From IMG/VR virus record IMGVR_UViG_3300049811_000191, positions 1 to 41,809 of that record: a stretch of DNA of 41,809 nucleotides, one strand, 5' to 3'. The position numbers and the translations under genes are program-made. Of the stretch, positions 1-40,007 are shown piece after piece. Below the pieces are notes generated by a model. It made no database searches and had not been told where the DNA came from. It was given only the letters and a program-made list of their open reading frames with translations. The DNA comes from a virus (lineage: Duplodnaviria; Caudoviricetes). Within the stretch, counting starts at the first letter, position 1. The number at the start of each line of letters is the position of its first letter.

Positions 1-632
1 AGATCTTCCAATAGTGTCTGCTTCACTTAAGCCTATGAATTTTGGTAAAAACATACATATTAAATTAGAAAGGGGTTATGAAGCATACTTCCGGCAAATT
101 CTTGCGGCTCTTGAAGCCAGTACTGCTGATATTATCTACTTTTGCGAACATGATTGGTTGTACCATCCTTCACATTTCTTCTTTACGCCGGAAGATAGAC
201 AAACATTTTATTATAACGATAATTGGTGGCGTGTTAGAGCATCAGACGGCCATGCAGTTAGATATGATACACATCTACTTCCATCTGTTGTTGGATATAG
301 AGAGCTATTTATTGAGTATTACCGGCTTGTCATTAAAAAGCTTGAAGAATTAGGCGGTTTTACAGGGGATAATGCCCGGTTTATTGGGTATGAGCCGGGT
401 ACACACCACAGATTGCCAGAGTTTGAGAAATATAGGGCAAAAAGCTTCAAATCTGAGTATCCTAATATAGACATACGCCATGATACAAATCTCACAACTT
501 CTAAATGGTCACAAAGTGAGTTTAGAAGTCAAAGAAATTGCCGGAATTGGCAAGAAACAGATGACATTCCGGGATGGGGCAAAGTCAAAGGCAACTTTAT
601 TAATTTACTTAAATCTATATGATACCTGTTTT
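1..632. repeat. Imperfect terminal direct repeat, left copy (matches ~41178-41809)
   Basis: Collinear at offset 41177. 593-632 is identical to 41770-41809; the rest has scattered, largely synonymous substitutions. Confidence 0.95.
14..622 (+). CDS. 5'-truncated C-terminal GT-A glycosyltransferase-like domain (variant of the 3' end of 40009..41799)
   Basis: 13 aa differences over 201 aa against the end of 40009..41799. FCEHDWLY is a DxD-like motif. The frame runs off the window start. Confidence 0.8.
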   Translation: MSASLKPMNFGKNIHIKLERGYEAYFRQILAALEASTADIIYFCEHDWLYHPSHFFFTPEDRQTFYYNDNWWRVRASDGHAVRYDTHLLPSVVGYRELFIEYYRLVIKKLEELGGFTGDNARFIGYEPGTHHRLPEFEKYRAKSFKSEYPNIDIRHDTNLTTSKWSQSEFRSQRNCRNWQETDDIPGWGKVKGNFINLLKSI

Positions 633-2599: not shown

Positions 2600-2885
2600 A
2601 GCTGATGATATACGAGCCAGAAACACACCAATTTTTAAGCTTAAAGATAAGCAGGGTAGACGATTTCAGGCTATTCATCTTGTAAAACAGTTTGGATTTG
2701 TACCAGAAGTGATTATTGTAGAGAAAGTGCATGGAATGAATAATGGTTTAATTGTCCGGGCCATTCTTACAAAAGAAGAAAAAGAAAGAGAGGATAAAAT
2801 GCGTGCTGAATTTGCAAAGAAAGTAGAAACTGAAGAATTACCAGTTGAAAACAAAAAAGATGACAAGTCCAATTCCAAATCCTAA
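2577..2885 (+). CDS. Hypothetical protein
   Basis: 102-aa ORF overlapping both neighbours in a packed operon. Confidence 0.7.
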   Translation: MDTKPKNEADDIRARNTPIFKLKDKQGRRFQAIHLVKQFGFVPEVIIVEKVHGMNNGLIVRAILTKEEKEREDKMRAEFAKKVETEELPVENKKDDKSNSKS

Positions 2886-3120
2886 ACCATTTGAAACAAT
2901 ATTAGTTGATAGTGTTGAAGATAAAGAGAGGCAATATAACTTCTATGAGGCTCTAAAGCATATGGTAGAAGGTAAAAAGATTACAAGAATTGAATGGAAC
3001 AGTCAGGAAGAATACGGTTTTATGAAAGATGGCATTGTAATGATACATACTAAGGGCAAAGATCACAGATGGATCATTTCTGAAGCTGATGCGATAGCTG
3101 AAGACTGGATTATTATTTAA
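2860..3120 (+). CDS. tad2: Tad2/DUF2829-like anti-defence nucleotide sponge
   Basis: NFYEALKHMVEGKKITRIEWN...WIISEADAIAEDWIII fits the family pattern. Start taken at ATG 2860. Confidence 0.8.
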   Translation: MTSPIPNPKPFETILVDSVEDKERQYNFYEALKHMVEGKKITRIEWNSQEEYGFMKDGIVMIHTKGKDHRWIISEADAIAEDWIII

Positions 3121-3127
3121 ATAATTT

Positions 3128-3907
3128 ATGAAAGTAGCAGTAATAGGATCTACAGGATGGGTTGGTAAGGCAATGTTGCAACTCTTTCCGGATGCTTACC
3201 AATATACAAGGCATATTGGATTGGTAGCAGAAGTAAATAAATGTGATGTGGCTTTTATTTGCGTGCCAACACCATTAAAAACTAACGGTAGTAGTGATTG
3301 GAGATTAGATACAAGTATTGTTGAAGAGATAGTTTCATGGTGTTCTTGCAAATTGATAGTCATCAGATCAACAGTAAATCCGGGAAATTGTGATTTTTGG
3401 GCTGCAAAATATGGCCGCAATATTGTTCATCAGCCGGAATATCTTGGAGAAACACCAAACCATCCATTACTTAATCAGAAGCACAATCAATTCATAATTA
3501 TAGGCGGTAAGCCTAAAGATAGAAGAATGCTTATAGATCTTTATACAACTACATATAATGCAAATTTAAAAATAAGACAGGTAACATCGCTTGAATCTGA
3601 GATTATAAAGCTATCAGAAAACCGGGCCATAGCTTTTAAGGTTATGCAGTGTCAGGAGCTTTATGATGCATGTGAAGCCGCCGGAGTTGATTATTACACG
3701 ATCCGGGATGCAGTATATGGTGATGATCCCCGGTTTAATTTATGGTTTACTTTTATCTATAAAAATAAACGTGGTTTTCAGTCTTCAAAATGTTTGAGTA
3801 AAGATGTTCCGGCTTGGGCTGCATGGGCTAGAGCAAATAATATTAATCCGCTTCTAACAAATTTATTAGTTAATAGAAGCATAGACTATGTCAACAAATT
3901 ATTATAA
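3128..3907 (+). CDS. UDP-glucose/GDP-mannose dehydrogenase-like protein lacking the C-terminal domain
   Basis: VIGSTGWVG, FICVPTP, IRSTVNPG, QPEYLGE, EIIKLSEN and GFQSSKCLSKD (catalytic Cys position). Only 259 aa. Confidence 0.85.
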   Translation: MKVAVIGSTGWVGKAMLQLFPDAYQYTRHIGLVAEVNKCDVAFICVPTPLKTNGSSDWRLDTSIVEEIVSWCSCKLIVIRSTVNPGNCDFWAAKYGRNIVHQPEYLGETPNHPLLNQKHNQFIIIGGKPKDRRMLIDLYTTTYNANLKIRQVTSLESEIIKLSENRAIAFKVMQCQELYDACEAAGVDYYTIRDAVYGDDPRFNLWFTFIYKNKRGFQSSKCLSKDVPAWAAWARANNINPLLTNLLVNRSIDYVNKLL

Positions 3908-4607: not shown

Positions 4608-7409
4608 ATGGCAACAATAGTAGATAGCTATAGTGAAAGCAATCAAAGTTCGCAATATTTGTTGAACAGTGAGCAAAATCAATATGCCGGTCAAACATTT
4701 ACTGGTAATGGTGGTGTTCTTGATAGTGTCAAGTTCTATAGTAGAAAAAATGGCCTTCCTACCGGAAATGCTTATGCAGAAATCTATGAACATACCGGCA
4801 CATTCGGATCAACTGGATTGCCTACAGGCTCACCATTAGCCACATCTGGTGCATTTGATGTTTCAACATTATCTGATAGTTATGGATTAATCACGTTGAA
4901 TTTTACTGGCGGTAATAGGATTACACTTTCTAACGGTACTAAATATTGCGTAGTCTTAAATTATGGTGGTGCATCTGGTACTACTTTCGTATTCATTGGA
5001 ATTGACAATTCAAGTTCTTCACATGCTGGTAATGGAATAAGAAAATCTGGATCAACTTGGTCTTATGATTCTAGTTATGATGCGTGTTTTTATGTTTATT
5101 CAGAAGGATCATCAGTATCATTATCTCCATCCTTATCACCATCTACAACTCCATCAACTTCAGTATCACTTTCTGCATCTACAACACCATCTGTATCTGT
5201 TTCTTTATCTCCATCACTGAGTATAAGTAGATCTCCATCACTTTCTGCATCTACAACACCATCTGTATCTGTTTCTTTATCTCCATCCTTATCACCATCG
5301 CCAACAGAATCTCCATCTCCATCAGCCGGAACAGATACTATTCTTGTAAATTCGGCAATTAATGATACTGCTTCTGCATCTTCACTAGCTTGTAATAAAC
5401 CAACAAATACTGCTGAGGGTGATTTGATGTTTGCTCTTGTAACACATGATGGTACGACTGCTCCAAATTCTGTTCCTTCTGATTGGAATTTAATAGGAAT
5501 AAGAGAATCTACATATTCTTGGCGGCTATATTACAAAGTTGCAGGAGCATCAGAGCCGGCAAGTTATACATGGGGTTGGGCTTCTGCAACTAAAATAAGA
5601 ATAACTATTGCTTCATATAGATATGGATTCAGTAAAGGAAATCCAATACAAACGTATTCTAATACAGCATATGTTACTAATAATGCAACACTCAGAGCAG
5701 CACAAGTAACAACATTATATTCTTCACAAACACTTCTTCATATAGGAGCTTTTAGAACAACAACTGTAAGAACATTTACAAAGCCATCAGGACAGGATAA
5801 TGATTGGGTAGAAGACGTAGATTCTGGTAATACTAATTCTGATTATTCACATAATTTTAATAGATGTGATTGGTCTGGTTCTGGTGCAACAGGGGTAGTT
5901 GATTCAACAGGTTCAGCATCAAGTACTACTAAACATGCTTTTCTTGTTGCTTTAAATCCAGTAGGAATATCACCAAGCATTTCTATATCTCTTTCTCCAT
6001 CTGTTACTCCATCAAGCAGTATTAGTTTATCTCAATCCTTATCACCATCTCTTTCTCTATCTTTATCTCCTTCAATAAGTGTGTCTTTGTCAGCTTCATT
6101 AAGTCCAAGTTCATCTTCATCATCATCTACAAGTCCTAGCTCAAGCGTAAGTTTGTCAGTCAGTTTATCACCATCACTTTCATTTTCTGTAAGTGAATCA
6201 TTATCTATTTCACTTTCACCATCAAGCAGTAGTAGTTCATCACAAAGTCCAAGTAGCAGTATATCGCTTTCGCCTTCTGTATCAATGTCTTTAAGTCCTT
6301 CTCTAAGCTTTTCACTTTCATCATCATTATCTGAATCAATATCTTCTAGTAGTAGTGTCAGCCCATCTTCAAGTATTAGTTTATCTGAATCCACATCAGA
6401 ATCATCATCACAAAGCCCTAGTAGTAGCGTTTCACTTTCACCATCAAGCTCTGTATCTTTAAGTCCTTCACTGTCTTTAAGTTTGTCACCATCTTTAAGT
6501 CCAAGCACATCTACATCAAGCTCAATAAGTCCATCATCAAGTGTGAGTTTATCACCAAGTTTATCTATTAGTCTTTCACCAAGCTCATCACAAAGTCCAA
6601 GTAGTAGTATTTCATCTTCTGTTTCCTTATCTTCATCCTTATCACCAAGTCTTTCTATTTCATCATCGTCAAGTTCATCAGTATCGCCATCAAGTTCTTC
6701 ATCATCATCAATAAGTCCAAGTAGCAGTGTTTCTTTATCTCCATCCGGATCTTCTTCTGCATCTGTTTCACCAAGCAGCAGCGTTTCACTTTCAGTTTCA
6801 TTATCTCCAAGCTCTTCAGCAAGTCCATCAAGTAGTAGTAGTTTATCCGCATCTCTATCTCCATCCCTGTCTTTATCCTTATCTCCAAGTTTGTCAATTT
6901 CAAGCTCAACTTCACCATCTTCTAGTGCAAGTTTAAGTGTAAGTAGTAGCCCATCACTTTCACCATCTGCTACTCCTAGCGCATCACCTTCTGTTTCCAC
7001 ATCTTTCTCACCATCTTTATCTTTATCTGCAACACCTAGTTTTTCACCATCAAGCTCACAATCTCCATCATCTTCAATCTCACTTAGTCAAAGTGTTTCA
7101 ATCTCTTTATCTTCTTCATTGTCCATCTCTTTATCACCATCTCTTTCATCTTCTCTGTCTTTAAGCGCAACAGAAAGCTCTAGTCAATCACTTTCAATAT
7201 CTTTATCACTATCTCTTTCTCCAAGCGCATCATTATCTTTCTCACCATCTCTATCTGCATCTTTATCTCCATCAAAATCTGTAAGTGCAAGTCCTTCAAA
7301 AGCTGAATATGAAGATAAATACGAAAAGAAAAATACCGGGTATGGCAGTAAATACAGCGCAAACAAGCCAACGTATACCAAAAAATATGCAGATTCCATG
7401 ACAAGGTAG
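4608..7409 (+). CDS. Serine-rich-repeat (mucin-like) putative virion fibre/adhesin 1
   Basis: Two beta-rich globular domains, a ~70-aa Ser/Pro linker, a ~440-aa S/P/L/V/I tract (~5969-7300) and a C-terminal YxxKY repeat. Start taken at ATG 4608. Confidence 0.8.
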   Translation: MATIVDSYSESNQSSQYLLNSEQNQYAGQTFTGNGGVLDSVKFYSRKNGLPTGNAYAEIYEHTGTFGSTGLPTGSPLATSGAFDVSTLSDSYGLITLNFTGGNRITLSNGTKYCVVLNYGGASGTTFVFIGIDNSSSSHAGNGIRKSGSTWSYDSSYDACFYVYSEGSSVSLSPSLSPSTTPSTSVSLSASTTPSVSVSLSPSLSISRSPSLSASTTPSVSVSLSPSLSPSPTESPSPSAGTDTILVNSAINDTASASSLACNKPTNTAEGDLMFALVTHDGTTAPNSVPSDWNLIGIRESTYSWRLYYKVAGASEPASYTWGWASATKIRITIASYRYGFSKGNPIQTYSNTAYVTNNATLRAAQVTTLYSSQTLLHIGAFRTTTVRTFTKPSGQDNDWVEDVDSGNTNSDYSHNFNRCDWSGSGATGVVDSTGSASSTTKHAFLVALNPVGISPSISISLSPSVTPSSSISLSQSLSPSLSLSLSPSISVSLSASLSPSSSSSSSTSPSSSVSLSVSLSPSLSFSVSESLSISLSPSSSSSSSQSPSSSISLSPSVSMSLSPSLSFSLSSSLSESISSSSSVSPSSSISLSESTSESSSQSPSSSVSLSPSSSVSLSPSLSLSLSPSLSPSTSTSSSISPSSSVSLSPSLSISLSPSSSQSPSSSISSSVSLSSSLSPSLSISSSSSSSVSPSSSSSSSISPSSSVSLSPSGSSSASVSPSSSVSLSVSLSPSSSASPSSSSSLSASLSPSLSLSLSPSLSISSSTSPSSSASLSVSSSPSLSPSATPSASPSVSTSFSPSLSLSATPSFSPSSSQSPSSSISLSQSVSISLSSSLSISLSPSLSSSLSLSATESSSQSLSISLSLSLSPSASLSFSPSLSASLSPSKSVSASPSKAEYEDKYEKKNTGYGSKYSANKPTYTKKYADSMTR
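5165..5287 (+). repeat. Exact 51-bp duplication in a Ser-rich linker
   Basis: 5165-5215 = 5237-5287, 72-bp in-frame period. Confidence 0.9.
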
Positions 7410-7436
7410 ACAGCAAATAGTTTTAAGCTATACACT
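7407..7436 (+). promoter_or_regulatory. Putative late promoter (ATAG class), leaderless
   Basis: TAGACA-GCAA-ATAG..., 18-bp spacer, TACACT. ATG at 7443. Confidence 0.7.
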
Positions 7437-7442
7437 TTGTGC

Positions 7443-8993
7443 ATGTCAGTAGTAAATCAATCACAAACAGGATATTCTTGGTCATTTTCCGGTTTTGATG
7501 AAGGTAATTCAGGAACTTACGCTTGGGCGCAATCTTTTACACCTTCTTCTAACGGTAGACTACATTCAATAAACTTGAGATTCTACAAAAACGGTTCACC
7601 TACCGGGAATATACATGCAAAAATATACAGCGATAATTCAAATACACCAGACAGCGCAATAGGTGAAGCAGATAGTGTGGTTACATTTGGTTCAGTAAGT
7701 GAATCCGGAACAGAAGTTTTATTTGAGTTTTTTAATTCGCAAATTGATCTTGTTGCAAGCACAAGATATTGGATTGTGTATTACGTAACTGATTACACCT
7801 ATGGACAATACAATAATATTGGGGCAATGGGTGAAACTTCAGAATCTTCCAATCCATATTCTTCCGGAAAGCTGATGTTTAGCACAAACTTTGATCAGGA
7901 AACGCCATCTTGGAATGATAATAATGCGTATGAAGGAGCAAGTGGATGGGATGATGCGTACTTTGTTCAGTATTATGCAGAATCATCATTAAGTGCTTCA
8001 CCAAGCGTAACTCCAAGCTCAAGTATTAGTCTATCACCAAGCTCTTCTTTATCACCATCATCTTCTGTATCTTCTTCACCATCTGAAGGATCATCACCAT
8101 CACTTTCACCAAGCTTATCTCCAAGCGTAACTCCAAGCTCAAGTGTCAGTCTATCTGTATCTTTGTCTATAAGCAGGTCATATAGCGCTTCTGTTTCTCC
8201 AAGTTCTTCTCTTTCATCATCAATTTCACCTAGCCCATCCCCGGCGTATATATGTCAACCAGTGCAGCTTATTGCAGAATCACTTAATACAAATGGCATA
8301 TCCTCAGAAAATGGTGGTTTATGGGCCTATGGCCAGTCATTTAAAAGAAGCACAGATGAGCCAATAAGTAAGATTACAGTTGCGGTATACAAGACCGGCA
8401 CTAATATATCCGGGAGCTTGAGGTTGCTACTTATGTCATCAAATTTAGGCGCTCCACAGTCCATAATTTCAACTTCTACCAATACACATGACATTGCAAA
8501 TTTAGATGAAGTCACAGTTGAATATCTTGATTTTTACTTTACGCCAATTTACCTAAATCCAAACACCACATATTTTTGGGTAATAGATGGGGTAGATATA
8601 GGTGTCACAAGCACAGCCGCTATAGTGCCATGTGGTTATGAAGCATTTACATTAGCTGAGGATTCATATACAGACGGCAAATTGATGTTCACACAAGCAT
8701 TTGATGGTATTGGTGATACATGGCTTGATGCAGCGCCGGGTGGTGAAGGAATAGGTGAGTGGATGGATGCATATTTCAGAGTTTGTTATGATCCGGAAGC
8801 ATTTTCTAAGTCACTATCTGTTTCTTTATCATCTTCTGCATCAATTTCACCAAGCGCTACACCATCTGCATCTTATTCTTTAAGTCCATCTCTATCACCT
8901 TCCATATCACCAAGCCCATCAAGATCACAGTATGAGGATATGTATCAGAAGAAAAATACCATCTACACTGATAAATACCGGGTTTGGGTGTAG
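7443..8993 (+). CDS. Serine-rich-repeat putative virion fibre/adhesin 2
   Basis: Two homologous beta domains (QSF...KxG...DAYF), two Ser/Pro tracts and C-terminal YEDMYQKKNTIYTDKY. Start taken at ATG 7443. Confidence 0.8.
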   Translation: MSVVNQSQTGYSWSFSGFDEGNSGTYAWAQSFTPSSNGRLHSINLRFYKNGSPTGNIHAKIYSDNSNTPDSAIGEADSVVTFGSVSESGTEVLFEFFNSQIDLVASTRYWIVYYVTDYTYGQYNNIGAMGETSESSNPYSSGKLMFSTNFDQETPSWNDNNAYEGASGWDDAYFVQYYAESSLSASPSVTPSSSISLSPSSSLSPSSSVSSSPSEGSSPSLSPSLSPSVTPSSSVSLSVSLSISRSYSASVSPSSSLSSSISPSPSPAYICQPVQLIAESLNTNGISSENGGLWAYGQSFKRSTDEPISKITVAVYKTGTNISGSLRLLLMSSNLGAPQSIISTSTNTHDIANLDEVTVEYLDFYFTPIYLNPNTTYFWVIDGVDIGVTSTAAIVPCGYEAFTLAEDSYTDGKLMFTQAFDGIGDTWLDAAPGGEGIGEWMDAYFRVCYDPEAFSKSLSVSLSSSASISPSATPSASYSLSPSLSPSISPSPSRSQYEDMYQKKNTIYTDKYRVWV

Positions 8994-9023
8994 TTGCAGA
9001 AAAATAGTTTAGCAGTTTACTAT
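8994..9023 (+). promoter_or_regulatory. Putative late promoter (ATAG class), leaderless
   Basis: TTGCAG-AAAA-ATAG..., 18-bp spacer, TACTAT. ATG at 9031. Confidence 0.7.
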
Positions 9024-9030
9024 ATGAGAT

Positions 9031-10698
9031 ATGTCAATGTATGAAGTAACATCATTTATAGGCGGTCTTTCAGATTATGAAGACAGGGGAGTTAGAGGCT
9101 CATTTAAGTTTGGAGCCAATCTTAATGTCCGGCGCAATCGTGATAGTCTATATCCTAACCAAGCATTAATAGATGAGGGTTTAAAAGAATATAGCCAATC
9201 ACCATCAGCTTCCGTTTCACCTTCTGCATCAGCCAGTAGGAGCATATCACCAAGTCCATCTGCTTCTCCAAGCTCAGTAAGTCCAAGCAGAAGCCCATCT
9301 ATATCCGTGTCTTTGTCACCTTCTCCATCAACAGGTGCTTCTTCATCACCTTCCGCATCAGTTTCACTTTCGCCAAGCTTTTCTCCATCTATTACTCCAT
9401 CATCAAGTATTTCACCAAGTCCATCACCATCAGGCGGTGCAGGTATAACTACAGTATTTCAAGACTTAATCAGGTTTTATGTGAAATGCACAGATGGGTA
9501 TACCTATGGATTTGGATCAACCGGGTATATCTATAGGCGTGATCAGGGCAGTTCATGGGTTCAGGTGTATAAAGATCCGGATGGTGAGATTAAAGGAGCC
9601 GCAGAATGGCCAAGTGCATCCGGATCAACTTTCCTGTATTGGGCTACAGATAAAAAGCTAAATCGCAAGCTTATTCCGGGCCTTGGTAACTGGAATGATG
9701 TCAATCAGGGTGGCTTGGGAGTATGGCCAAAAACAGATCTGCAAAGCTCACCTTGGCACACTATGAGAGAATGCGGCGGCTCACTTATCATTGCAAATGG
9801 GCCGTATTTGGCGCTTGTTGGCTATGATCAGTCATATGCAAATGAAGCGCTTGATCTTATACCCGGAAACATTGCAACAACTCTAGTTGAAAGAAACGGT
9901 AGAACAATAATTGGCACATCACGAAAGGACAATCCATCTAAAAGCGTGAATGCTGCAATAGATTGTGAAGTTCCGCTTGCACAAATAGGAGATGATGGCG
10001 GAATATTCTTTGCTAACATGACAGACACCATTCCAGTTAAAGCATTTCCCGGAGGTGGGAAATGTAATCCGGGTGGTGTCTGTAACTCTTTTAATCCGGT
10101 AACTTTCTTTGAATGGGAACAAACGGCCCTAAATTGGATAGATAAGCAAGAGGTGGGTAATTTGGCATTATTTGGCGTATACAGCGCAATTACCGGCAAA
10201 AATGGGGTATACAGCTATGGAAGGACAGACAAAAACAAGCCATTTATATTGAATCTTGAATATGAGCTTGATGTTGATGAAATCGGAGCAATTACGATGG
10301 TTGATGATTTGCTTCTCATATCTTACCGGGATGGATCATCATTTGGAGTAAAAGCAGTAGATCCAAATAACAAAGCTACAGGAACATATGAAGGTTTGGA
10401 GTTTAAAGCGCCGCCAAAAATACCGGAAAAGATTACAGTTTGGAACAAAGTAGAGCTATGGATGGCTCCATTGCCAGCAAATACCAGTGTTGAATACTAT
10501 TATCGGTTAAACAAGACAGGTAATTATGTTAAGGCAAAAACGGCGCTTGGAGATGATGCACATGATATTGTTGGATCTCAGCAAGCAGTTTTTTCTATAG
10601 CCGGGGCCGGTGAAGTATACGAGCATCAAATAAAGCTTATTCCATCAGGTAATACAGCGCCGGAGATATTTAGAGAAAGAGTATTTTTTGATGTTTAA
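9031..10698 (+). CDS. Putative tail nozzle/hub protein with an inserted Ser/Pro tract
   Basis: N-terminal SFIGGLSD resembles podovirus nozzle starts. Beta-rich body, ~80-aa SPS insert (~9193-9432), located in the tail module. Confidence 0.6.
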   Translation: MSMYEVTSFIGGLSDYEDRGVRGSFKFGANLNVRRNRDSLYPNQALIDEGLKEYSQSPSASVSPSASASRSISPSPSASPSSVSPSRSPSISVSLSPSPSTGASSSPSASVSLSPSFSPSITPSSSISPSPSPSGGAGITTVFQDLIRFYVKCTDGYTYGFGSTGYIYRRDQGSSWVQVYKDPDGEIKGAAEWPSASGSTFLYWATDKKLNRKLIPGLGNWNDVNQGGLGVWPKTDLQSSPWHTMRECGGSLIIANGPYLALVGYDQSYANEALDLIPGNIATTLVERNGRTIIGTSRKDNPSKSVNAAIDCEVPLAQIGDDGGIFFANMTDTIPVKAFPGGGKCNPGGVCNSFNPVTFFEWEQTALNWIDKQEVGNLALFGVYSAITGKNGVYSYGRTDKNKPFILNLEYELDVDEIGAITMVDDLLLISYRDGSSFGVKAVDPNNKATGTYEGLEFKAPPKIPEKITVWNKVELWMAPLPANTSVEYYYRLNKTGNYVKAKTALGDDAHDIVGSQQAVFSIAGAGEVYEHQIKLIPSGNTAPEIFRERVFFDV

Positions 10699-11815: not shown

Positions 11816-12487
11816 ATGGATACACTTTCAGAGATGCGAACAGCATTATATTCAGACTTAAACGCCAACAATCAAAGTACGCTATTTACTACAGATGTTG
11901 TTGATCTAGCGCTAAATAGAGCCTACAGAAAAGCCGGAGCCTTGTATCTATGGCCGGAAACTGAAGATGCAAAGAAAACCACAACACAGATAAATCAGGA
12001 ATATTATGATTTTCCGGACAATTGGGTTCCGGATTCTATGTGGAAACTTACGGTAGCCGGTGAAGATTATGGTGATCCTCTTGAATTTAAAGATTATCTA
12101 TATGAAAAAGAAAATGATATTCCATCCGGTGCTGATAATCTTTGGTCTATGCAGTGGAGAAGGTTCTTTTTGTATCCAACTCCAACTTCAGCCGGAGTTG
12201 AGATAAGTATTTGGGGCCAGAAAGTAGTTGATAAGATGGTAGAAGAAGAAGACACAACTATATTCTCTTATGCCATGCCGGAATGTAATGATGCTATCGT
12301 GCTTGAAGCCGGGGCCATTTTAAGAGCTAAAGCAGAAGACAAAGAAACAAGTATTTTCAAGTCAAATGAAGCAAAACAGCTTCTTACTATTTCATATAGC
12401 AAAATAAAGCGGGCCAAGGCAAGGCAAAAGAAAACACAGTCATTTTTTAATGTTCCGGATTTTTTTGGTAAAAATTCAAGCTTTTAA
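11816..12487 (+). CDS. Putative head-tail adaptor (podovirus type)
   Basis: TLSEMRT...LNRAY...EYYDFPD...FFLYPTP pattern, with typical size and position. Confidence 0.65.
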   Translation: MDTLSEMRTALYSDLNANNQSTLFTTDVVDLALNRAYRKAGALYLWPETEDAKKTTTQINQEYYDFPDNWVPDSMWKLTVAGEDYGDPLEFKDYLYEKENDIPSGADNLWSMQWRRFFLYPTPTSAGVEISIWGQKVVDKMVEEEDTTIFSYAMPECNDAIVLEAGAILRAKAEDKETSIFKSNEAKQLLTISYSKIKRAKARQKKTQSFFNVPDFFGKNSSF

Positions 12488-13688: not shown

Positions 13689-16600
13689 ATGGCATTTTCT
13701 GATCCGGTATTTGAAAAAAGAAGAGCAACATTTGGTGGCAGCTCACAAGGCAGCACACAAAAAACAACAAATTCAGGTTCTTCTTTTGTAGATCCAGTAT
13801 TTGAAAAGCGCCGCATGGAGATAATCAAAACTCCTTCACAACCTACTAAAAAACAGATCACAGCGCCAGTGACATTATCTCAGCCTAAAAAACAGAATCT
13901 TGTTGAAAGAACTACAGATAATCTTGCATGGGCCGGGAATACGGCTCTTGATAATGCAGCTAGTCTTGTTAAAAAGATAGGCAATTTTACGGTTAAGCTT
14001 GTGACACCAAAACCAACAGCAATGCAGCAAGAGGTGGCAAAACTTACACAAACTCCTATTAAGCTATCCCCGGATCAAAAAAAACTTACTACAGAACAGC
14101 TACAACAGGTTGCAGTACCAAGCGCATCACTAAAGCAGCAAAGTAAGCAAGAGTCACTTAAAAAAGCGCAAGAGATAAGAAAAACTACATCTGAAAAGAT
14201 AAGAGCGCTTGAAAAAGTGTTTGATTCACAAGTGGTTAAGCAAAGAGAAGTTAAAAAGGGATATAAAGAGCCGGGCATATTTGGAGATGCAGTAGAGGCA
14301 CTATCTCAAGGTATAGTTAATACGATGGGAATTATTGGGGCTGGAGTTGAAAAATTAGGTAGACAAGCTAAGCCAAATCCATATGATATTCAGGGTATAA
14401 CAAATAAGTTTTTAATGACAAATGTAGGAAGAAAATTAAGCGCTGAAGCAGATAATATTATTGCTAGTAATCCAGAGTGGAATCCAGATCCAAAAGCGAA
14501 ACCGTATGAAGCAAAAAGCATAGCAAGACTTTGGGCCGCTACGGCTCCTTCTATTTTAATAAACATTGCCGCCACACTAGCTACTTACCCTGTTGGTGGT
14601 GTTGGTGGTTATGTTACTGGTTATCTTATGGAATCAGGAGCAACTTACAAAGAGGCAAAGAAAATGGGCGTAAGTGAAGAAAAAGCACAATTGTATGGTG
14701 ATATTGTCGGTGTAGTAAATTCAATATTTGAACATCTTTTGCCGGGGAGCATGACTTATGGAAAAAAAATAGTTAAGGGTATGTTTATGTCAGGAGCTAA
14801 AGAAGTTGTGGAACAAGGGGTAAAAGAAACAACAAAAAAAAGTGTTGACATTATAAGCAAATCTCTTGCAAAAGAAGTATTAAAAAATTTAGGTAAATTT
14901 GGTCTAAAAATGGCTAAAAACGGAGCCATAGAAGGTGGAACGGAAGCAATACAAGAGATGTGGGCAAATGTTATAGCGATGAATTACGATAAAAATAGAA
15001 AATATTATGATAATGCATTTACATCTGCAATAGGTGGATTTCTGGGTGGAGCAACATTTGGTGGTGGATCAGAAGAGGCCATTCAGCAATCAGGCATAAT
15101 TCCAGACGGTACATATACGCCGGAGCAGGTTATAGGCAAGCTCATCCAAACGAAAATGAATGAAACTACAGAAGGTAAAGAGCTTATGAAAACAGCCTTA
15201 CAAGCTAAGGAAACCGGACAACAAATTGAAGTTAAAAATGACGCTATAGTTAATAGTGAAGTGCAAACTATAAACCAAGAAGAAGTAAAATCAGTTGAGA
15301 AAGAAAGCGGCAAGCAATCATCAGCTTCATCACTACAAAAAGAGATAGATCAGATACTTGGAGTAGATGAAAGCATAAAAAATATAGTCAAAAAAGACGG
15401 TGTAAGAGGTAAAAGCTATTTGGCAATGCAAAAGGCGGCAGATGCAGGTGATAAGCAAGTAATGGCAAATATAGATAGAATAGTTGAGCTTCAAACAAAG
15501 ATTGATGATTTACAAGAAACTAAACGCAAAAATACAAAAGCTAAAAAGAAAACTATTAATAAAAAACAGTCAGCAAAAGAATACATAGAAAAAACGGTGA
15601 AAGAAAGAACAACGAAGTTCAGAATCAGCAAAGAAGAGCAACAAAACATAGATCAGGAAGCAGATGTTCTGCAACAACTACTTGCTAAAGATGAAGTAAA
15701 TACCAGATTGTTTCATGATGCAAAAAGTGTTAATCCAATAGAAAACTTTGAAGACATGGAATACATTGTTAGAAGGATAGGACAAGGTAAAGCAACAATG
15801 GAAGATATAAGTGCCGGATTCGCAATACTTGAACAAAATGGATATACGCCGGGCCTTATTAAAGCAATGGTAACAGCAGATGCATATATAAAAAACAAGA
15901 AAGGCCCTAGATTTAGAGAAGAAACAGATCAAAATAAACAGTTGGAAGAACTGCTTGCTATAGAACGGCCAAATTTGGAACAAATCAAGCTCATTAATAA
16001 ACTTCGTGCTGAACAGATGGCACAAAAACAGGCCAAATCAGCAGAAGACATAGGAGAAGAAAAAATGGGTTGGAAAGATGGACGAAAGGATGAGTTTGAT
16101 AATGCGGTTGATTTAAAGAATGTAGATAAAGTGCGTGAAATGTTGCCGGAAGTGCCAGCGTATTACAAAGAAGAGTTTAAAGGCAAGATTGATGAAGCAA
16201 TAAGAATGGGCGAATTGATGCAAGAGGCTGAAAAATATAAAACGGCGGAAGAGTTTATAAAAGCACAAAAGCTTGTATATCATGGAACTACTGCTAATTT
16301 AAAAGAATTTAGCAATGACACTGGAACATTCTTTACAGATGATTACATGAACGCTGATGGATATGCGAGTGGTGAAAATGTCTATGAAGGATATATAAGA
16401 TTTATAAATCCTTTAATAATTGATGCAAAGGGAAGGATGCATAATGATATTGATACAGAATACGGCAAAACAACTAGAGAGGTCGTAGCAAATGTTGATA
16501 GTAAAAAATATGACGGAATAATATTTGAAAATATAAAAGACAGTTGGATTGATGATGCAGAAGCTCAAGATCCAAGCACAATATATTATGCTTTTAGGCC

Positions 16601-18395
16601 AAAAGATTCTTTTTTAAACGAATCACAGCTTGAAGAGATTTGGAATGAGGCAAACAAATCTGATACTACCGGGCCTAGGTTTAGGGAAACTAGCGCTATT
16701 GAATCCCTAAATAATGAGGCAAAAAAGTACAAAAATGTAGAAGACTTTATAGAATCTCAAAGTAATTTTAGAGATGGTCATACTGCTCCAAGCTTTGATG
16801 ACACACCTGTTAAGCAACGAATGGAAGATGGTGGTGATTTTAACTTATCAGAAGTAATTAAAGGCCAACACACACAACCATCTGATTATTTTGATCCTAC
16901 AGTTGGGCCAAAATATTATATGTACGATGATAAGGCTGGTATGGAAAGTTTGACAGCAATAAATAATGTCAAGAGAGGTGCTAAAACAATAACGGCATAT
17001 AGGGCTATTCCAAAAGAAATCAATGCTGATAAATTAATTGATGGAGATTGGATCTCTTTTTCTAGAACCTATGCAGAAAATCATGGTTTATCACGTTTTG
17101 GAGAAAACGAGTATAAAATAATTGAACAAGATGTCAATCCAAAAGAAGTTTGGTGGGATGGAAACGATATACGAGAATGGGGGTATGACACAGGAAAAAC
17201 CAACAGATTAAGTAGGTATGATCTAATCAATATCTGGAATAAGGCTAATTTAAAATTAAGGGTTAAAGATGATGTTAAAAAGATAACCGGCAGAACAATC
17301 ACAGATGCACAAGAACAGGAGCTTATAGATCTAAACCGTAAATTCTTTGGAGATGATAAGGTGAACATTACGCTTCAGATTATGGCCAATAGCAAAGCAC
17401 TTGGCCAGTATTACCAGAATATGATTGACATTGTAGATGGCCAAGCAGATCCAAAAGCTACATATCTTCATGAGGCAGTACACAAATATTTAGATGTTTT
17501 TTCTACAACTGAAGAATATGTGCAAGTTTTGGAAGAAGGAGCTAAAAAGTATAAAACAGATGATTATGCAGAGGTTGAAGAGAAAATAGCTGAAGAGTTT
17601 ATTACATACGCCAAAACAAAAGAATCAGCAAACACAGGCATCAAAGGATTCTTTACAAAAATACTAAACCGTATCAAGCTCTACTTTGCCAATAAATCTG
17701 CAATAGAAAGGCTATATAACGAGATTATAGAAGGCAAAGCAGCTAAAAAGGCTGAAACTGCAACAGACAGTAAGCCATTGGCGGCAGATGCTATTCCTTC
17801 AAATGAACAGGCACAAACGCCAGTAGGAGCCGGTAAAAAGGCCAAATCTAAGGCATATACACGTGTTTATGATATGTTGGCTGAAGAAACTAAGCAGGAT
17901 GTGTCATATAACAAGCTTAACATTGAGAAGGATGTAGATGCGGCGGCTGAATTTGCGGCAGCAGATCCAAAAGCGGCAATAAGAGTAGCATTAGGGCTAG
18001 AAGAAGCTCCAAAAGGTCAAACAGAAACAGCAATATCTATTCTTCTTGCTGATAAGGCGGGCCGGGATGGTGATTTTCAGCTTCAGTCACAGCTTGAAGC
18101 GGCCCGGTCACTAAGGCAAACTAGAAGAGGGCAAGAGATTGTTTCAGAGCGTGGCCGGTTTAATGAAGATTCACCACACTTCTTCATACGAAAATTACTT
18201 GATGCACGGCTTAATAATCTTGGTAAAAGTCTTGGTGTGGCAATTGAAGAGTATAGATTAAGGTTAGTAAGCGCAAAAGAGGTGGCCATTAAGAAAATTG
18301 ACAAAGTAAAGAAAAACATTACAGAAAAGATAAAAGCAGACCGGAAAAAAATAGATTTTGCTAAAGATTTCTTATCATCAATTACTTGTAAATAA
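13689..18395 (+). CDS. Large polyvalent internal virion/ejection protein (two ART-like domains, zincin HExxH)
   Basis: 1568 aa with Gly/Ala hydrophobic segments, VYHGT...FFT...YDGIIF, AYRA...GDWISFS...EWGY and YLHEAVH (HEAVH at 17469-17483). Confidence 0.7.
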   Translation: MAFSDPVFEKRRATFGGSSQGSTQKTTNSGSSFVDPVFEKRRMEIIKTPSQPTKKQITAPVTLSQPKKQNLVERTTDNLAWAGNTALDNAASLVKKIGNFTVKLVTPKPTAMQQEVAKLTQTPIKLSPDQKKLTTEQLQQVAVPSASLKQQSKQESLKKAQEIRKTTSEKIRALEKVFDSQVVKQREVKKGYKEPGIFGDAVEALSQGIVNTMGIIGAGVEKLGRQAKPNPYDIQGITNKFLMTNVGRKLSAEADNIIASNPEWNPDPKAKPYEAKSIARLWAATAPSILINIAATLATYPVGGVGGYVTGYLMESGATYKEAKKMGVSEEKAQLYGDIVGVVNSIFEHLLPGSMTYGKKIVKGMFMSGAKEVVEQGVKETTKKSVDIISKSLAKEVLKNLGKFGLKMAKNGAIEGGTEAIQEMWANVIAMNYDKNRKYYDNAFTSAIGGFLGGATFGGGSEEAIQQSGIIPDGTYTPEQVIGKLIQTKMNETTEGKELMKTALQAKETGQQIEVKNDAIVNSEVQTINQEEVKSVEKESGKQSSASSLQKEIDQILGVDESIKNIVKKDGVRGKSYLAMQKAADAGDKQVMANIDRIVELQTKIDDLQETKRKNTKAKKKTINKKQSAKEYIEKTVKERTTKFRISKEEQQNIDQEADVLQQLLAKDEVNTRLFHDAKSVNPIENFEDMEYIVRRIGQGKATMEDISAGFAILEQNGYTPGLIKAMVTADAYIKNKKGPRFREETDQNKQLEELLAIERPNLEQIKLINKLRAEQMAQKQAKSAEDIGEEKMGWKDGRKDEFDNAVDLKNVDKVREMLPEVPAYYKEEFKGKIDEAIRMGELMQEAEKYKTAEEFIKAQKLVYHGTTANLKEFSNDTGTFFTDDYMNADGYASGENVYEGYIRFINPLIIDAKGRMHNDIDTEYGKTTREVVANVDSKKYDGIIFENIKDSWIDDAEAQDPSTIYYAFRPKDSFLNESQLEEIWNEANKSDTTGPRFRETSAIESLNNEAKKYKNVEDFIESQSNFRDGHTAPSFDDTPVKQRMEDGGDFNLSEVIKGQHTQPSDYFDPTVGPKYYMYDDKAGMESLTAINNVKRGAKTITAYRAIPKEINADKLIDGDWISFSRTYAENHGLSRFGENEYKIIEQDVNPKEVWWDGNDIREWGYDTGKTNRLSRYDLINIWNKANLKLRVKDDVKKITGRTITDAQEQELIDLNRKFFGDDKVNITLQIMANSKALGQYYQNMIDIVDGQADPKATYLHEAVHKYLDVFSTTEEYVQVLEEGAKKYKTDDYAEVEEKIAEEFITYAKTKESANTGIKGFFTKILNRIKLYFANKSAIERLYNEIIEGKAAKKAETATDSKPLAADAIPSNEQAQTPVGAGKKAKSKAYTRVYDMLAEETKQDVSYNKLNIEKDVDAAAEFAAADPKAAIRVALGLEEAPKGQTETAISILLADKAGRDGDFQLQSQLEAARSLRQTRRGQEIVSERGRFNEDSPHFFIRKLLDARLNNLGKSLGVAIEEYRLRLVSAKEVAIKKIDKVKKNITEKIKADRKKIDFAKDFLSSITCK

Positions 18396-24957: not shown

Positions 24958-25995
24958 ATGAATTTACAAAAATACATAGACGAAAAATACATTTCAGTAC
25001 AGAAGCATCCTACTGAAGATCTGTACATATATAACTATACGCAAAAAGCACAGTTTGATAAATTGTGGACAGAAGAAACATTATTTTGCCGGGGCCTTAT
25101 TATGGATAGCAATGGAAATGTTGTGGCCCGGCCATTCAGTAAATTCTTTAATTATGGAGAATACGCCGGTGAGATTCCAAATACTGATTTTGAAGTAACT
25201 GAAAAGCTTGATGGATCACTTGGAATAATGTACTGGATAGGTAAAACGCCGTACATTGCAACACGTGGATCATTTACATCAGATCAGGCAATAGAAGCAA
25301 CAAAGATATTGCAGGGTTATAGCGCATACTTTGAAGAGCTATATAGCAAAAGACACCTTACCTATTTATTTGAGATTATTTATCCGGAAAATAGAATTGT
25401 GGTTGATTACCGGGGTAGGCGTGACTTAATACTATTGGCAGTCATAGATACAGCAACCGGGCATGAGCTTGATAGATATGAAGAATGTTATGGTTTTCCT
25501 GTTGTATCAACAAAAAGTGGTGTTAATGACATTTCAAAGCTTAAAGAGCTTGAAGAGGATAATAAGGAAGGATTTGTAATAAGATATGCAAACAATTTGA
25601 GATTAAAGGTTAAATTTGATGAATATGTGAGATTGCATAGGCTGATTACAGAGTGCAGCAGCCTTGTTATATGGGATTTATTAAGAAATAAAAAGCCCTT
25701 GGATGAATTGCTTGATAAAGTGCCGGATGAGTTTTATGGTTGGGTTAGAAGTACGGTACATAGTTTGGAGCTTGATTACAAAATGGTATACCGGATAGCC
25801 AGTATGTATTTAGAAACTGAGAATATTAAAAACATGCCAAGCCGGAAGGATCAAGCAATTAAGATCATGTCAGATCCAAAATACCGGAAATATACCGGGA
25901 TAATGTTCAAGATACTTGATGGCAAGTCATATGAGGATGCTATATGGAAATTAATACGGCCAGTGCATCAATTACCATTTAAAAAGGAAATATGA
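24958..25995 (+). CDS. rnl1: T4 Rnl1-family RNA ligase
   Basis: CRGLI...RPFSKFFNYGE, motif I EKLDGSL, ATRGSF, FEII, EGFVI and KVK. Confidence 0.92.
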   Translation: MNLQKYIDEKYISVQKHPTEDLYIYNYTQKAQFDKLWTEETLFCRGLIMDSNGNVVARPFSKFFNYGEYAGEIPNTDFEVTEKLDGSLGIMYWIGKTPYIATRGSFTSDQAIEATKILQGYSAYFEELYSKRHLTYLFEIIYPENRIVVDYRGRRDLILLAVIDTATGHELDRYEECYGFPVVSTKSGVNDISKLKELEEDNKEGFVIRYANNLRLKVKFDEYVRLHRLITECSSLVIWDLLRNKKPLDELLDKVPDEFYGWVRSTVHSLELDYKMVYRIASMYLETENIKNMPSRKDQAIKIMSDPKYRKYTGIMFKILDGKSYEDAIWKLIRPVHQLPFKKEI

Positions 25996-26840
25996 AAAAA
26001 ATCATAATGACTAAAGGATTGCCGGGATCTGGTAAAACATATTGGGCCAAACAGGCGCAGCGCACAGAGCCTACAACTGTACTTGTTAATAAAGACGATT
26101 TAAGAGATATGCTACATCAGGGCGCATGGTCAAGAGATCGTGAAGCATTTGTGCTTAAAGTGCGTGATTTTATAGTTGTAGAAGCTATTAAGGAAAATAA
26201 ACCGGTTATTGTTCATGATACAAACTTAGCGGCAAAACATGAAACTAGATTGCGGCAGTTGGCAAAAGAAAACGGCGCAGAGTTTGAAATTAAAGATTTT
26301 ACGTGGGTATTAGTTGATGATTGTATAAGGCAAGATTTAATGCGTGAAAGATCAGTTGGTGAGAAAGTGATCCGCAAGATGTTTAATCAGTTTTTAAAGC
26401 CAAAAATTAAAGTACAAGGTTATGATGCATCTTTGCCATATTGTGTTATATGTGATCTTGATGGAACACTAGCTTTATTTGGTGATGCAAACCCTTATGA
26501 TCGTGATTTTATGCAAGATCAAATAAATCCGGTCATTAAAAGAATAATAGATGATGTAACTGAAGATTTGGGTAAGCTCATTATTGTTTCCGGCAGAACG
26601 GATAAATTTGCATTTGATACTGGTAAATGGTTGGAAGAAAACAAGATTAACTTTACTTCTTTATACATGAGAAAAGAAGGAGATGTGCGGAAGGATCGCA
26701 TTGTTAAGGAAGAGATTTATAAAGAGCATATTCAAGGCAAATACAATGTGCTATTTGTGCTTGATGATCGCAATCAAGTTGTGGATATGTGGAGATCAAT
26801 GGGCCTTATTTGTTTACAAGTTGCGGATGGAGATTTTTAA
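25992..26840 (+). CDS. pseT: Polynucleotide 5'-kinase/3'-phosphatase (T4 PseT/Pnkp-like)
   Basis: P-loop GLPGSGKT, HAD motif DLDGTL, SGR and LDDR. Confidence 0.93.
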   Translation: MKKIIMTKGLPGSGKTYWAKQAQRTEPTTVLVNKDDLRDMLHQGAWSRDREAFVLKVRDFIVVEAIKENKPVIVHDTNLAAKHETRLRQLAKENGAEFEIKDFTWVLVDDCIRQDLMRERSVGEKVIRKMFNQFLKPKIKVQGYDASLPYCVICDLDGTLALFGDANPYDRDFMQDQINPVIKRIIDDVTEDLGKLIIVSGRTDKFAFDTGKWLEENKINFTSLYMRKEGDVRKDRIVKEEIYKEHIQGKYNVLFVLDDRNQVVDMWRSMGLICLQVADGDF

Positions 26841-27811
26841 TGGACATACTATTTAAATGCCAGTTTGGATCACATCTTTACGGCACAGATACACCAGAAT
26901 CAGATTTGGATTTTAAAGGAATCTACAAAGCAGATATTAGGGATATATTGCTTAATAGATGTGAGGATACAATTATTCAAGATATAAAGGTATCTAAAAC
27001 AGTTAAAAATACCAGTGAGGATCAGGATTGTGAATTTAAGGAATTAAGGTACTTTTTAAAGGAAGCTTCAGAAGGGCAAACATATGCGCTTGATATGCTT
27101 TTTTCACCTTATTCAATAATCACATCTTCCGCATGGGCGGAAATACAAGCTAATAGGCTCAAGCTTATAAGTAAAAAGTGTAAGCCAATCTTAGGATATA
27201 TCCATCAACAGTGTGCAAAATACGCTGTCAAAGGAAGTAGATTAGATGCTTTGGAAGAGGTTATGAAATGGGCCAAATCATTTGATCAGGAAACCAAAAT
27301 AGCTGATATTGTAGATTCCTTTCCGGAAAGATCGCAAGTGGTAGATAGTGAGATAATTTATCATACGAAAAGATTAAACATAATAGAAGGAAAACGAAAT
27401 GGAAAGATCTTTGAAGATAAAACGATTTCAGTACTTGGCGCATCGTTTCAATACGGAACCAGACTAAAATACATAACTAGCGTACTTGAAAAACAACATA
27501 CAAAGTATGGACAAAGAGCAATATTAGCTCAAAAGAACGAAGGAGTTGATTGGAAAGCAGTATCACATGCCGTAAGACTAATATTACAAACTAATGAGCT
27601 TGCTGAAACCGGAAACATAACATTTCCGCTTATTGAGAAAGATTTTGTGATGAAGATTAAGATGGGGCTGGTTGATTGGAATGAAGTAAATGATTGGATA
27701 TATACGCATATAGATCAAGTATTTACAAAAATTAAACATTCAGCTTATTTGTGTGAAGAACCGGATTATGAGTGGATAGAACAGTTTGTTATCAGGACTT
27801 ATTTAAAGTAA
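26840..27811 (+). CDS. Pol-beta-family nucleotidyltransferase (RlaP/PF10127-like)
   Basis: FGSHLYGTDTPESDLDFKGIY and DWKAVSHAVRL. TAATG coupling to the upstream gene. Confidence 0.85.
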   Translation: MDILFKCQFGSHLYGTDTPESDLDFKGIYKADIRDILLNRCEDTIIQDIKVSKTVKNTSEDQDCEFKELRYFLKEASEGQTYALDMLFSPYSIITSSAWAEIQANRLKLISKKCKPILGYIHQQCAKYAVKGSRLDALEEVMKWAKSFDQETKIADIVDSFPERSQVVDSEIIYHTKRLNIIEGKRNGKIFEDKTISVLGASFQYGTRLKYITSVLEKQHTKYGQRAILAQKNEGVDWKAVSHAVRLILQTNELAETGNITFPLIEKDFVMKIKMGLVDWNEVNDWIYTHIDQVFTKIKHSAYLCEEPDYEWIEQFVIRTYLK

Positions 27812-37217: not shown

Positions 37218-37237
37218 GTATGTATGTTGTACATACA
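37216..37237. promoter_or_regulatory. Putative RHH operator, copy 2
   Basis: Inverted repeat TGTATGT-TGT-ACATACA over the start codon. 19/20 match to 2393-2412. Confidence 0.65.
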
Positions 37238-39744: not shown

Positions 39745-40007
39745 ATCAAATATTCTTTAAAACTATAGCGCAAGCGGCCCGGCAGATTGAAGTATTAAGT
39801 GAGAAGAACAAAAGGGAGCAGACAAATCTAGCCATGCAGATTTATTGGCAAACATACGTGGCATTGGCTATAGAAGAAGGATTCTCAGACTTAGATATAA
39901 GCTATGCATTAGATAAATTGGTGAAGTCTGGTATTAAAAATTGTGTTGATTTGGTGTTTTCTCCGGGAACAGGTACACCAAAAATTTATTCAATTGGCAA
40001 ATCATAA
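39741..40007 (+). CDS. Hypothetical protein
   Basis: ATGA-coupled, fills the gap in the operon. Confidence 0.6.
   Translation: MNQIFFKTIAQAARQIEVLSEKNKREQTNLAMQIYWQTYVALAIEEGFSDLDISYALDKLVKSGIKNCVDLVFSPGTGTPKIYSIGKS

Follow-up and report, generated by a model that had tools for sequence, protein, structure and literature searches.

The question raised by the virus record IMGVR_UViG_3300049811_000191, analyzed here over its whole 41.8-kb length (41,809 nucleotides; hereafter designated the window), is whether an uncultured bacteriophage encodes both serine/proline-rich tracts in its own particle proteins and the glycosyltransferases (GTs) that decorate them. An earlier note on this DNA had proposed that four Ser-rich structural proteins are coated with glycans by the enzymes of a nearby sugar gene cluster. 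The sugar cluster and the genes with tracts share one strand and are placed between the capsid and tail-hub genes; from gene content, gene distribution and structural models we consider it probable that the phage GTs glycosylate the Ser tracts of its own predicted head and tail proteins. The location of these proteins in the virion, their glycosylation, the identity of the sugars and the purpose of the coat are what we infer from the genes.

Serine tracts and the adjoining sugar cluster

Six Ser/Pro tracts with a period of two residues were found in four plus-strand genes, amounting to 870 residues with 479 Ser and 110 Pro. They occupy amino acids (aa) 168–239 and 455–897 of the product of 4608–7409 (nucleotides (nt) 5109–5324 and 5970–7298), aa 181–267 and 457–493 of 7443–8993 (nt 7983–8243 and 8811–8921), aa 57–134 of 9031–10698 (nt 9199–9432), and aa 109–261 of 36390–37184 (nt 36714–37172; 153 aa, 78 Ser), the genes being named hereafter by their first positions. 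The earlier note had placed tracts in the same four genes and put the longest at about 440 aa, in agreement with the 443 aa (59% Ser) found here. Within the tracts, the probability of Ser at position i+2, given Ser at i, was 0.75–0.94, versus 0.03–0.33 at i+1; small hydrophobic residues stood in between, and 108 of the 110 Pro were followed by Ser. The peak Ser count per 40 aa was 21–29; when 5,964 aa from 11 other genes of the window were shuffled 300 times, it never exceeded 10.

An origin of the tracts by DNA slippage was considered and rejected. Among 156 pairs of identical 8-aa repeats in the long tract, none had identical DNA (third-position identity, 0.44), and both classes of Ser codon were used (AGY in 142 of the 479); Tandem Repeats Finder, run on the tract DNA, gave only short, weak arrays. 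Thus, the repeats are alike in protein and not in DNA, and the tracts are maintained by selection at the protein level, not at the DNA level. Two minus-strand open reading frames (ORFs) with acidic translations (6032–7000 and 36704–37138) were discarded as genes, being shadows of the tracts.

All four tract proteins are predicted to be structural components of the virion. They sit in virion-gene slots, as expected from the earlier note, and their structural role is read from this placement, the globular parts giving no direct family match at cut-off. Protein 36390, a putative capsid decoration protein or head fibre, consists of a conserved N-terminal domain of about 107 aa (60 sequences; 55% mean column identity) and the tract, which forms a free C-terminus with nothing distal to it; in relatives, its gene lies directly 3' of the capsid gene. 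The nearest named atlas clusters of the N-domain (PTL_trimer, 0.91; T4_gp9_10_N, 0.88; Mtd_N, 0.85) give a lead only, namely a resemblance to virion trimerisation domains with disagreement on the family. In a GT-less relative (L258), the same type of N-domain is followed by a non-repetitive domain in place of the tract. Protein 9031, a putative tail hub or nozzle like P22 gp10 (nearest named atlas cluster PF11134 Phage_stabilise, again as a lead; score 0.87, 171 shared features), carries its tract as an inserted loop, a clean insertion that is missing in two GT-less relatives (L013 and L021) at 53–54% identity.

The other two are putative tail fibres. Protein 4608 has two globular domains and C-terminal YxDKY-type repeats; its N-domain is found again in 16 tract ORFs from phage loci and from loci of metagenome-assembled genomes (MAGs), and GT-less relatives have tail spike or fibre genes in its place. 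Protein 7443, encoded directly before the hub gene, has two DUF4082-like domains (below cut-off) and a YxDKY-type C-terminus. By a loose count, 41 of the 51 genes immediately preceding the hub gene (from 55 loci, four of which have no such gene; L267 and L268 probably miscounted) encode such Tyr/Lys repeat ends, those of GT-less L013, L238, L239 and L211 among them; presumably, these ends form a C-terminal anchor from which the globular domains are held outward. Stalks presenting binding domains, as the earlier note envisaged, are therefore possible for 4608 and 7443, but not for the free-ended tract of 36390 or the hub loop of 9031. When 90 of 142 non-tract segments of viral tract proteins were compared with Pfam, 29 had a match (12 LamG/ConA-like, eight Gly_rich_2, two beta-helix, one F5/8, one tail tube and five others). 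Within the family the tracts are not always in the same places: at L048:4540–8703 a tract protein of 1,387 aa is encoded between the portal and scaffold genes, and L069 (8657–16701) has no 36390 homologue and keeps the GTs together with a 991-aa tract protein. A tail-tube-family protein (PF18906) with a short Ser tract (L322:11259–12440) recalls the tail-tube glycosylation of mycobacteriophages.

The sugar cluster, likewise on the plus strand, contains four GT-A domains, a count made in the earlier note and confirmed by family, profile and fold searches; they fall into two families, designated A1 and A2. A stand-alone GT27-like A1 enzyme (37224–38072) with a KTDAHC motif and a C-terminal His is a candidate peptide-priming N-acetylhexosamine (HexNAc) transferase, the next gene (38069–38812) encodes an A2 enzyme recognized by fold match only, a candidate chain extender, and a two-domain GT (40009–41799; frame open from a GTG at 39943, first ATG at 40009) fuses a GT27-like N-terminal A1 to a C-terminal A2 domain. 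Three sugar-modifying enzymes named in the earlier note also held up: a DegT/DnrJ-family sugar aminotransferase (619–1728; PF01041, E 3e-82), an RmlD-like NDP-sugar reductase (1718–2380; PF04321, E 1e-20; TIGR01214 below cut-off), and a short UDP-sugar dehydrogenase-like protein (3128–3907) with the N-terminal and central domains only (PF03721 and PF00984). Since the homologues of the last in relatives are similarly short (about 250–320 aa, with no match for the C-terminal domain), it is probably functional in this form. The methyltransferase of the earlier note fared less well: 39259–39744 is a putative S-adenosylmethionine-dependent enzyme by motif only (VLELGxG and D/HD), with no Pfam, NCBIfam or PDB match and an insignificant profile match. 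The cluster is interrupted by small ORFs, by an HNH-AP2 homing endonuclease gene (38799–39266), which is not part of the module and whose interval is skipped by the contig of one run, and by a Tad2-like (Thoeris anti-defence 2) gene (2845–3120), which adjoins GTs in many relatives. Of 80 viral and 80 MAG loci with A1, 76 and 75, respectively, also have A2; the 80 viral loci, which end at 10 kb so that the counts are lower bounds, hold at least 21 dehydrogenase, 19 methyltransferase-like, 12 DegT and 8 RmlD genes.

The two parts of the cluster lie at opposite ends of the window, and these ends share 628 bp with 92% identity. Two public runs of the same study each hold a contig (2,761 nt in run X1, 6,899 nt in run X2) that matches both ends and continues from the fused GT into the DegT gene; because these independent contigs span the join, the cluster is contiguous across it. 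The window is not an exact circle, the imperfect overlap representing two strain alleles. The ORF at 2–622 (plus strand) is such an assembly overlap, a second allele of the fused GT 3' end (92% DNA identity), and was rejected as a fifth GT domain.

Joint occurrence of tracts and enzymes

Relatives were collected with the capsid gene (35200–36318, plus strand; PF25209, phrog_267 major head protein) and the hub gene as anchors, both independent of the two traits, under an inclusion rule fixed before counting. Among the 34 informative capsid-anchored loci (46 of 80 were left out with <6 kb downstream), 30 had both tracts and enzymes, four had neither, and none was discordant, and the hub anchor gave 29, seven and none, respectively, for 36 of 52 loci (16 were too short); some loci belong to both sets, and two negatives are nearly identical to each other. 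The hub insert itself was present in 24 of 29 GT-positive and in none of seven GT-negative loci. Moreover, in tract-less relatives with 68–72% capsid identity, tracts are gone from three separate genes together with the enzymes. Whole-record searches of the negatives, 19–88% complete, gave no A1, and six of these records, read whole, had no tracts; A1 was present in all 21 records of at least 90% completeness among the 50 hub-family records searched. In close relatives the gene order is capsid, 36390, GT cluster, sugar genes, 4608, 7443, 9031 and adaptor. One apparent GT-positive, tract-less locus (L106) was rejected, its tract genes being at the other end of a permuted record. The co-occurrence expected by the earlier note is thus seen in the family, where no informative locus keeps tracts without GTs; incomplete tract-bearing phage records without the enzyme do exist, as described below. 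On a capsid tree made by a quick method (67 rows, near-copies removed, GT-anchored loci included, 22 short loci dropped), the tract/enzyme state needs four changes, at least three of which are forced, with L013 and L020 nested among the positives.

The pair recurs in phages with five different capsid families and in one phage with a tape measure gene; the capsids in GT-anchored loci outside the family belong to phrog_1005, phrog_10, phrog_9953 and phrog_1328, and the tracts lie in unrelated proteins. When loci were chosen by the GT and extended 6 kb or more past the last enzyme, a tract was found in 41 of 44 viral and 29 of 34 MAG loci; among the eight exceptions, L114, L140, L170, L172 and L326 carry tract genes elsewhere in their records, the tract of L146 is a short one, and the other two are L297 and L305, described below. 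When they were chosen by the Ser/Pro pattern in 4 of the 64 parts of the viral collection, A1 was present in 8 of 21 loci with long alternating tracts versus none of 102 with short or no tracts (22 of the 102 being at least 15 kb long). At least 702 of at least 733 pattern-matching viral stretches belong to A1, and 573 A1-type clusters at 50% identity had E ≤ 1e-30; tblastn of 50,697 GenBank phages gave no match to the module.

Nature of the glycosyltransferases and competing explanations

The A1 family comprises 37224 and the N-terminal half of 40009, and in an alignment of 71 sequences the DxH motif and the C-terminal His are invariant (71 of 71). The first 14 PDB matches of the A1 profile were polypeptide N-acetylgalactosaminyltransferases (ppGalNAc-Ts; best E 1.3e-16 over positions 4–253 of 284); with generic GT2 proteins, the profile matched only over about 100 N-terminal positions (E ≥ 2e-9). 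Similarly, ppGalNAc-Ts were the best phmmer matches of the fused GT (E 2e-4) and made up all 33 Foldseek PDB matches listed for its model (predicted local distance difference test (pLDDT), 94.5; best E 3.7e-14, template-modeling (TM) score 0.59). Among viral fold matches of A1, four of the top seven were named 'Glycosyltransferase, GlcNAc' (9–15% identity). PF11397, which we take to be the GT60 family, had no match among the 71 members at E 0.01. The WGGE Glu is kept in 41 of 42 stand-alone members, in which W-G is not kept; the fused type keeps the W, the G and a later E in 28 of 28. According to PMC7185993, DxH is a variation confined to GT27 and GT60, both of which share polypeptide Ser/Thr O-glycosylation.

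A1 has in common with GT27 and GT60 the GT-A fold, DxH, the C-terminal metal His, a W-G-x-x-x-x-E...K-x-W-x-x-G-G segment, and a Ser/Pro-rich repetitive acceptor, here a candidate one. By sequence and model we file it as GT27-like, not GT27, because it has neither the membrane anchor nor the ricin lectin domain and is fused instead to a second GT-A domain. It further differs from GT27 in that two paralogues split the WGGE motif, that phages and ultra-small bacteria encode it, and that the candidate acceptor is nearly all Ser. A lectin domain is absent from GT60 as well, and the Skp1 member of that family is a soluble cytosolic enzyme (PMC8724618). The A2 family (38069 and the C-terminal half of 40009) gave no Pfam or PDB sequence match, and its profile comparison with A1 was not significant; the AlphaFold model of 38069 (pLDDT 94.2) has SpsA and WrtF as the nearest GT-A folds (E 1e-7, TM about 0.5). 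The A3 and hub alignments had no PDB sequence match. All cluster enzymes appear soluble, without a membrane segment (maximum 19-residue hydropathy, 1.3).

These enzymes bear on a further explanation, that the GTs hypermodify phage DNA against restriction, virus-encoded DNA-glycosylating GTs being known (PMC12619734). We regard it as scarcely credible: no base-hydroxymethylase, TET/JBP or DNA methyltransferase was found among the scanned ORFs (several small ORFs being without any family), the cluster belongs to the morphogenesis region, peptides are the substrates of the most similar enzymes, and the tie to the Ser tracts is left unexplained.

With the Gram-positive serine-rich repeat proteins (SRRPs; Fap1, GspB and PsrP) invoked in the earlier note, as defined in PMC6973325, the likeness lies in the acceptor, namely in long alternating-Ser tracts adjoining a glycosylation gene cluster, in Ser-x regions flanking a non-repeat region (4608 and 7443), and in globular domains between the short and long tracts of 4608. 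It does not extend to the machinery: family scans, sequences and hydropathy of the window gave no signal peptide, LPxTG, SecA2/SecY2/Asp or GtfA/GtfB, and a match to the SRRP-type NF033849 was composition-driven and far below cut-off. The tracts here are Pro-rich, the acceptors are predicted virion proteins, and the priming candidate is GT27-like. Judged from profiles and folds, the tract kit resembles eukaryotic mucin initiation more than SRRP glycosylation.

Virion O-glycosylation in mycobacteriophages has reportedly been described by Freeman et al. in 2023. In Che8, Corndog and Myrna, phage GTs modify the phages' own capsid and tail proteins, which is taken to give a glycan shield, according to PMC11256854, PMC12363180 and PMC12619734; there the glycans are at the C-termini of capsid and tail-tube subunits, whereas the candidate sites in the window lie in dedicated tracts as long as 443 aa. 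The likeness of Che8 gp108 to A1 is confined to the generic GT-A part at the N-terminus (19.5 bits), and neither A1 nor A2 is matched by gp109 or gp110. The 12-gene cluster of Mimivirus (Megavirinae), compared by description in the accessible part of PMC10117803, is likewise a virus-encoded, clade-variable set of nucleotide-sugar enzymes, aminotransferase, methyltransferase and GTs that coats the particle; these are, however, giant eukaryotic viruses with polysaccharides on fibril proteins, and that part of the text mentions no alternating-Ser acceptor. A literature search, with most subscription papers outside its reach, found no paper describing the pairing of tract and enzyme.

Several observations weigh against glycosylation of the tracts by the phage GTs. 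Glycosylation itself is read from the genes, and the virion location of the tract proteins from gene position and weak atlas leads. A1 identity to ppGalNAc-Ts is only 13–18%, Pfam assigns every A1 member to plain GT2, no lectin domain is present in the two A1 proteins of the window or the 71 catalytic-domain rows, and Q/M replaces the WGGE Glu in the fused type. Moreover, two loci have the enzyme without a visible tract, namely L305 (25% complete) and L297, where the contig breaks off within a fibre-like gene, and the most complete of the GT-less, tract-less relatives reaches 88%, short of the 90% level. Whole records could be searched for 10 of the 13 tract-positive, A1-negative loci, and nine lacked A1 throughout, one having it; eight of the nine are 10–56% complete, and the remaining one, a complete provirus, has a different kind of linker, (SP)n. 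An A2 gene stands at the edge of one of the nine records. What speaks most clearly against a strict tract–enzyme link is G841, in which three tract proteins flank a P22-like coat gene and 20 kb hold no recognized GT. Finally, because the tree changes are few and the tract genes neighbor the enzymes, block co-inheritance explains part of the pattern. G352, a further candidate for a tract without the enzyme, was set aside as it may be a shadow of an acidic repeat. Separately, the tract-bearing phage G844 (L507–L508; 56% complete) carries an epimerase, a PfkB kinase, a sulfotransferase and four RCC1-repeat proteins, with no recognized GT in 35 kb.

If co-inheritance were the whole explanation, the tracts would be unmodified flexible spacers, linked to the enzymes through one mobile block, and the real acceptor another virion site. 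The flanking of the cluster by tract genes, the four changes of the family tree and the incomplete records with tracts and without the enzyme are in its favor. We nevertheless judge it unlikely, since the tracts occur in different, non-homologous proteins of unrelated phages, including a tail-tube protein, the tract gene is at least 10 kb from the enzyme in the same record in G832, G833, G645 and G834, the hub insert lies inside a conserved core gene, and strict Ser alternation is kept despite scrambled codons. The tract-bearing records without the enzyme would also fit modification mainly by host enzymes or by other chemistry (phosphate or methyl), the phage GTs only extending or capping the product; GT2 enzymes are reported to glycosylate Ser/Thr-rich regions in streptococci (PMC12041528). 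Such a division of labor seems very improbable, as A1 was found in only 7 of 401 genomes of the probable host phylum, so that most hosts searched could not supply the enzyme, and all 21 near-complete hub-family records carry it.

Cellular copies, phage relatives and the proposed role

A genome scan for the module found 252 stretches, and among the best 80, which were examined, many are titled as Patescibacteria groups and 32 loci have cell-type neighbors, 13 with TatC. Chromosomal tract proteins reach at least 2,660 aa, with no evident signal peptide at the N-terminus, and some contain the 4608 N-domain at 34–44% identity. Since A1 turned up in only 6 of 400 Patescibacteria genomes sampled, it is an island of patchy distribution in that phylum and not a core trait. 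In FastTree analyses of the 80 nearest sequences per collection, the chromosomal fused-type enzymes mostly formed one well-supported group nested among viral branches, also when paralogue-rooted, and the sequences suggest that the chromosomal module was captured from phages. One 'cellular' marker (L174:5547) matches a phage cement Pfam, so that 3 of 35 'chromosomal' loci are doubtful. A Ser-tract protein query of 401 genomes found only three and missed known positives, and is therefore too insensitive to count tracts.

Six of the MAG contigs (L135, L177, L184, L185, L124 and L174), titled WWE3, Zambryskibacteria, Woesebacteria, Parcubacteria and Niyogibacteria, hold chromosomal islands with both GT families, many methyltransferases and a giant Ser-tract protein with phage-fibre-like domains, often near TatC; possibly, these islands are a domesticated phage module. 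Several of the giant proteins end in a W...GRP...G.GFN motif, which resembles fibre trimerisation domains. G834 (L170/L172; a 1.1-Mb genome) and other MAGs titled 'uncultured Gammaproteobacteria' have Patescibacteria-like gene contexts, and their titles may be mislabels.

The chromosomal copies bear on another explanation, in which the sugar genes remodel O-antigen-like or surface glycans of the host envelope for superinfection exclusion or for attachment of a symbiotic host, the Ser tracts being linkers and nothing more. Envelope-glycan genes usually include DegT, RmlD and UDP-sugar dehydrogenases. The same GT families are found in host chromosomes, and nucleotide-sugar genes of phages of the Candidate Phyla Radiation (CPR) are read as auxiliary modifiers of the host surface in a preprint (10.1101/2025.02.25.640227). 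We find this account improbable, however: the enzymes have no membrane segment, the scanned ORFs include no flippase, lipid-carrier or polymerase gene, the cluster is placed between capsid and tail genes, the loss of tract inserts from virion genes together with the enzymes is left unexplained, and the chromosomal copies also adjoin a giant tract gene.

The window, 98% complete by CheckV with nearly all genes on one strand, has family matches to the small terminase, major capsid protein, SU10-type adaptor (11816–12487, plus strand; PF24175 SU10_adaptor), RNA ligase, polynucleotide kinase and RusA. Position and size point to the large terminase, portal, scaffold and three ejection-like proteins, and the tail is presumably short because no tape measure gene was found in the window. 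The capsid protein matched 2 of 401 genomes searched (the class of a genome titled Candidatus Woesebacteria), namely a 33-kb phage contig carrying the whole module (63% identity) and a prophage (44% identity) flanked on either side by host-like genes within a 149-kb contig. The latter (G593:C1, about 32,700–67,000; L210–L212), integrated and without tracts or A1, is the best evidence for the host group; from the relatives' contigs, the host is likely a Patescibacteria member (Microgenomates-type). One family contig (L160) was binned with an Anaerolineales MAG. Other observations include an RNA repair cassette in this 42-kb phage, with RNA ligase, polynucleotide kinase/phosphatase and RlaP-like nucleotidyltransferase genes in a row (24958–27811); a 1,568-aa ejection-like protein (13689–18395) with an ART-PolyVal domain (aa 861–972) and a ParB-like region; an insertion in the capsid protein (aa 137–253), possibly a surface domain, with weak tail and tail-fibre PHROG matches; and AT-rich sequences without an evident Shine–Dalgarno motif in the 21 bases upstream of 11 gene starts.

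Glycosylation of the tracts by the phage GTs may proceed as follows. Late in infection, the GT27-like domains (37224 and the N-terminal half of 40009) would transfer the first HexNAc from a UDP-sugar, in the cytoplasm, to Ser of the SxSxSP tracts; since they keep complementary halves of the WGGE motif, the two may differ in donor or act in sequence. The two A2 domains would then extend the chain, and the variable aminotransferase, reductase, dehydrogenase and methyltransferase-like genes would diversify the sugars between strains. Dense glycans would stiffen the tracts into free capsid hairs (36390) and a tail-hub loop (9031), and into spacers holding the N-terminal domains away from the C-terminal anchor (4608 and 7443). 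Extended glycosylated chains measure about 0.25–0.35 nm per residue, and a genome of this size is packed in a head of about 55–60 nm. At such lengths, the 153-aa tract of 36390 would span about 40–50 nm and the 443-aa tract more than 100 nm. Because two of the tracts carry no distal domain, the most likely purpose would be a non-stick shield that protects the particle and also helps the tracts to stay soluble and resist proteases; reach for the receptor-binding domains of 4608 and 7443 may be another, and mimicry of a matching host coat is the least supported.

More tentatively, and with considerable doubt, a prokaryotic sister lineage of the animal mucin-initiating enzymes may serve as a portable phage 'mucin kit' that turns Ser tracts in capsid, hub, tube or fibre proteins into bottle-brushes, Patescibacteria having captured the kit and the fibre domains for giant mucin-like surface proteins. 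If so, the glycocalyx of a 40-kb phage would have a depth of about one head width, virus and host would wear related coats, and mucin-type O-glycosylation would have a cytoplasmic, virus-borne counterpart, possibly bearing on the origin of GT27. Phage virion glycosylation has so far been a matter of a few mycobacteriophages and terminal sites, whereas here dedicated acceptor-like tracts lie beside the enzyme, and the GT27-like family extends over hundreds of environmental phage contigs, most informative loci of which have tracts. If active, a soluble, lectin-free enzyme priming mucin-like repeats in the bacterial cytoplasm would be useful for making defined mucin mimics. The module also offers a competing reading for the CPR-phage sugar genes, at present classed as auxiliary metabolic genes, and suggests a surface structure that some Patescibacteria may have.

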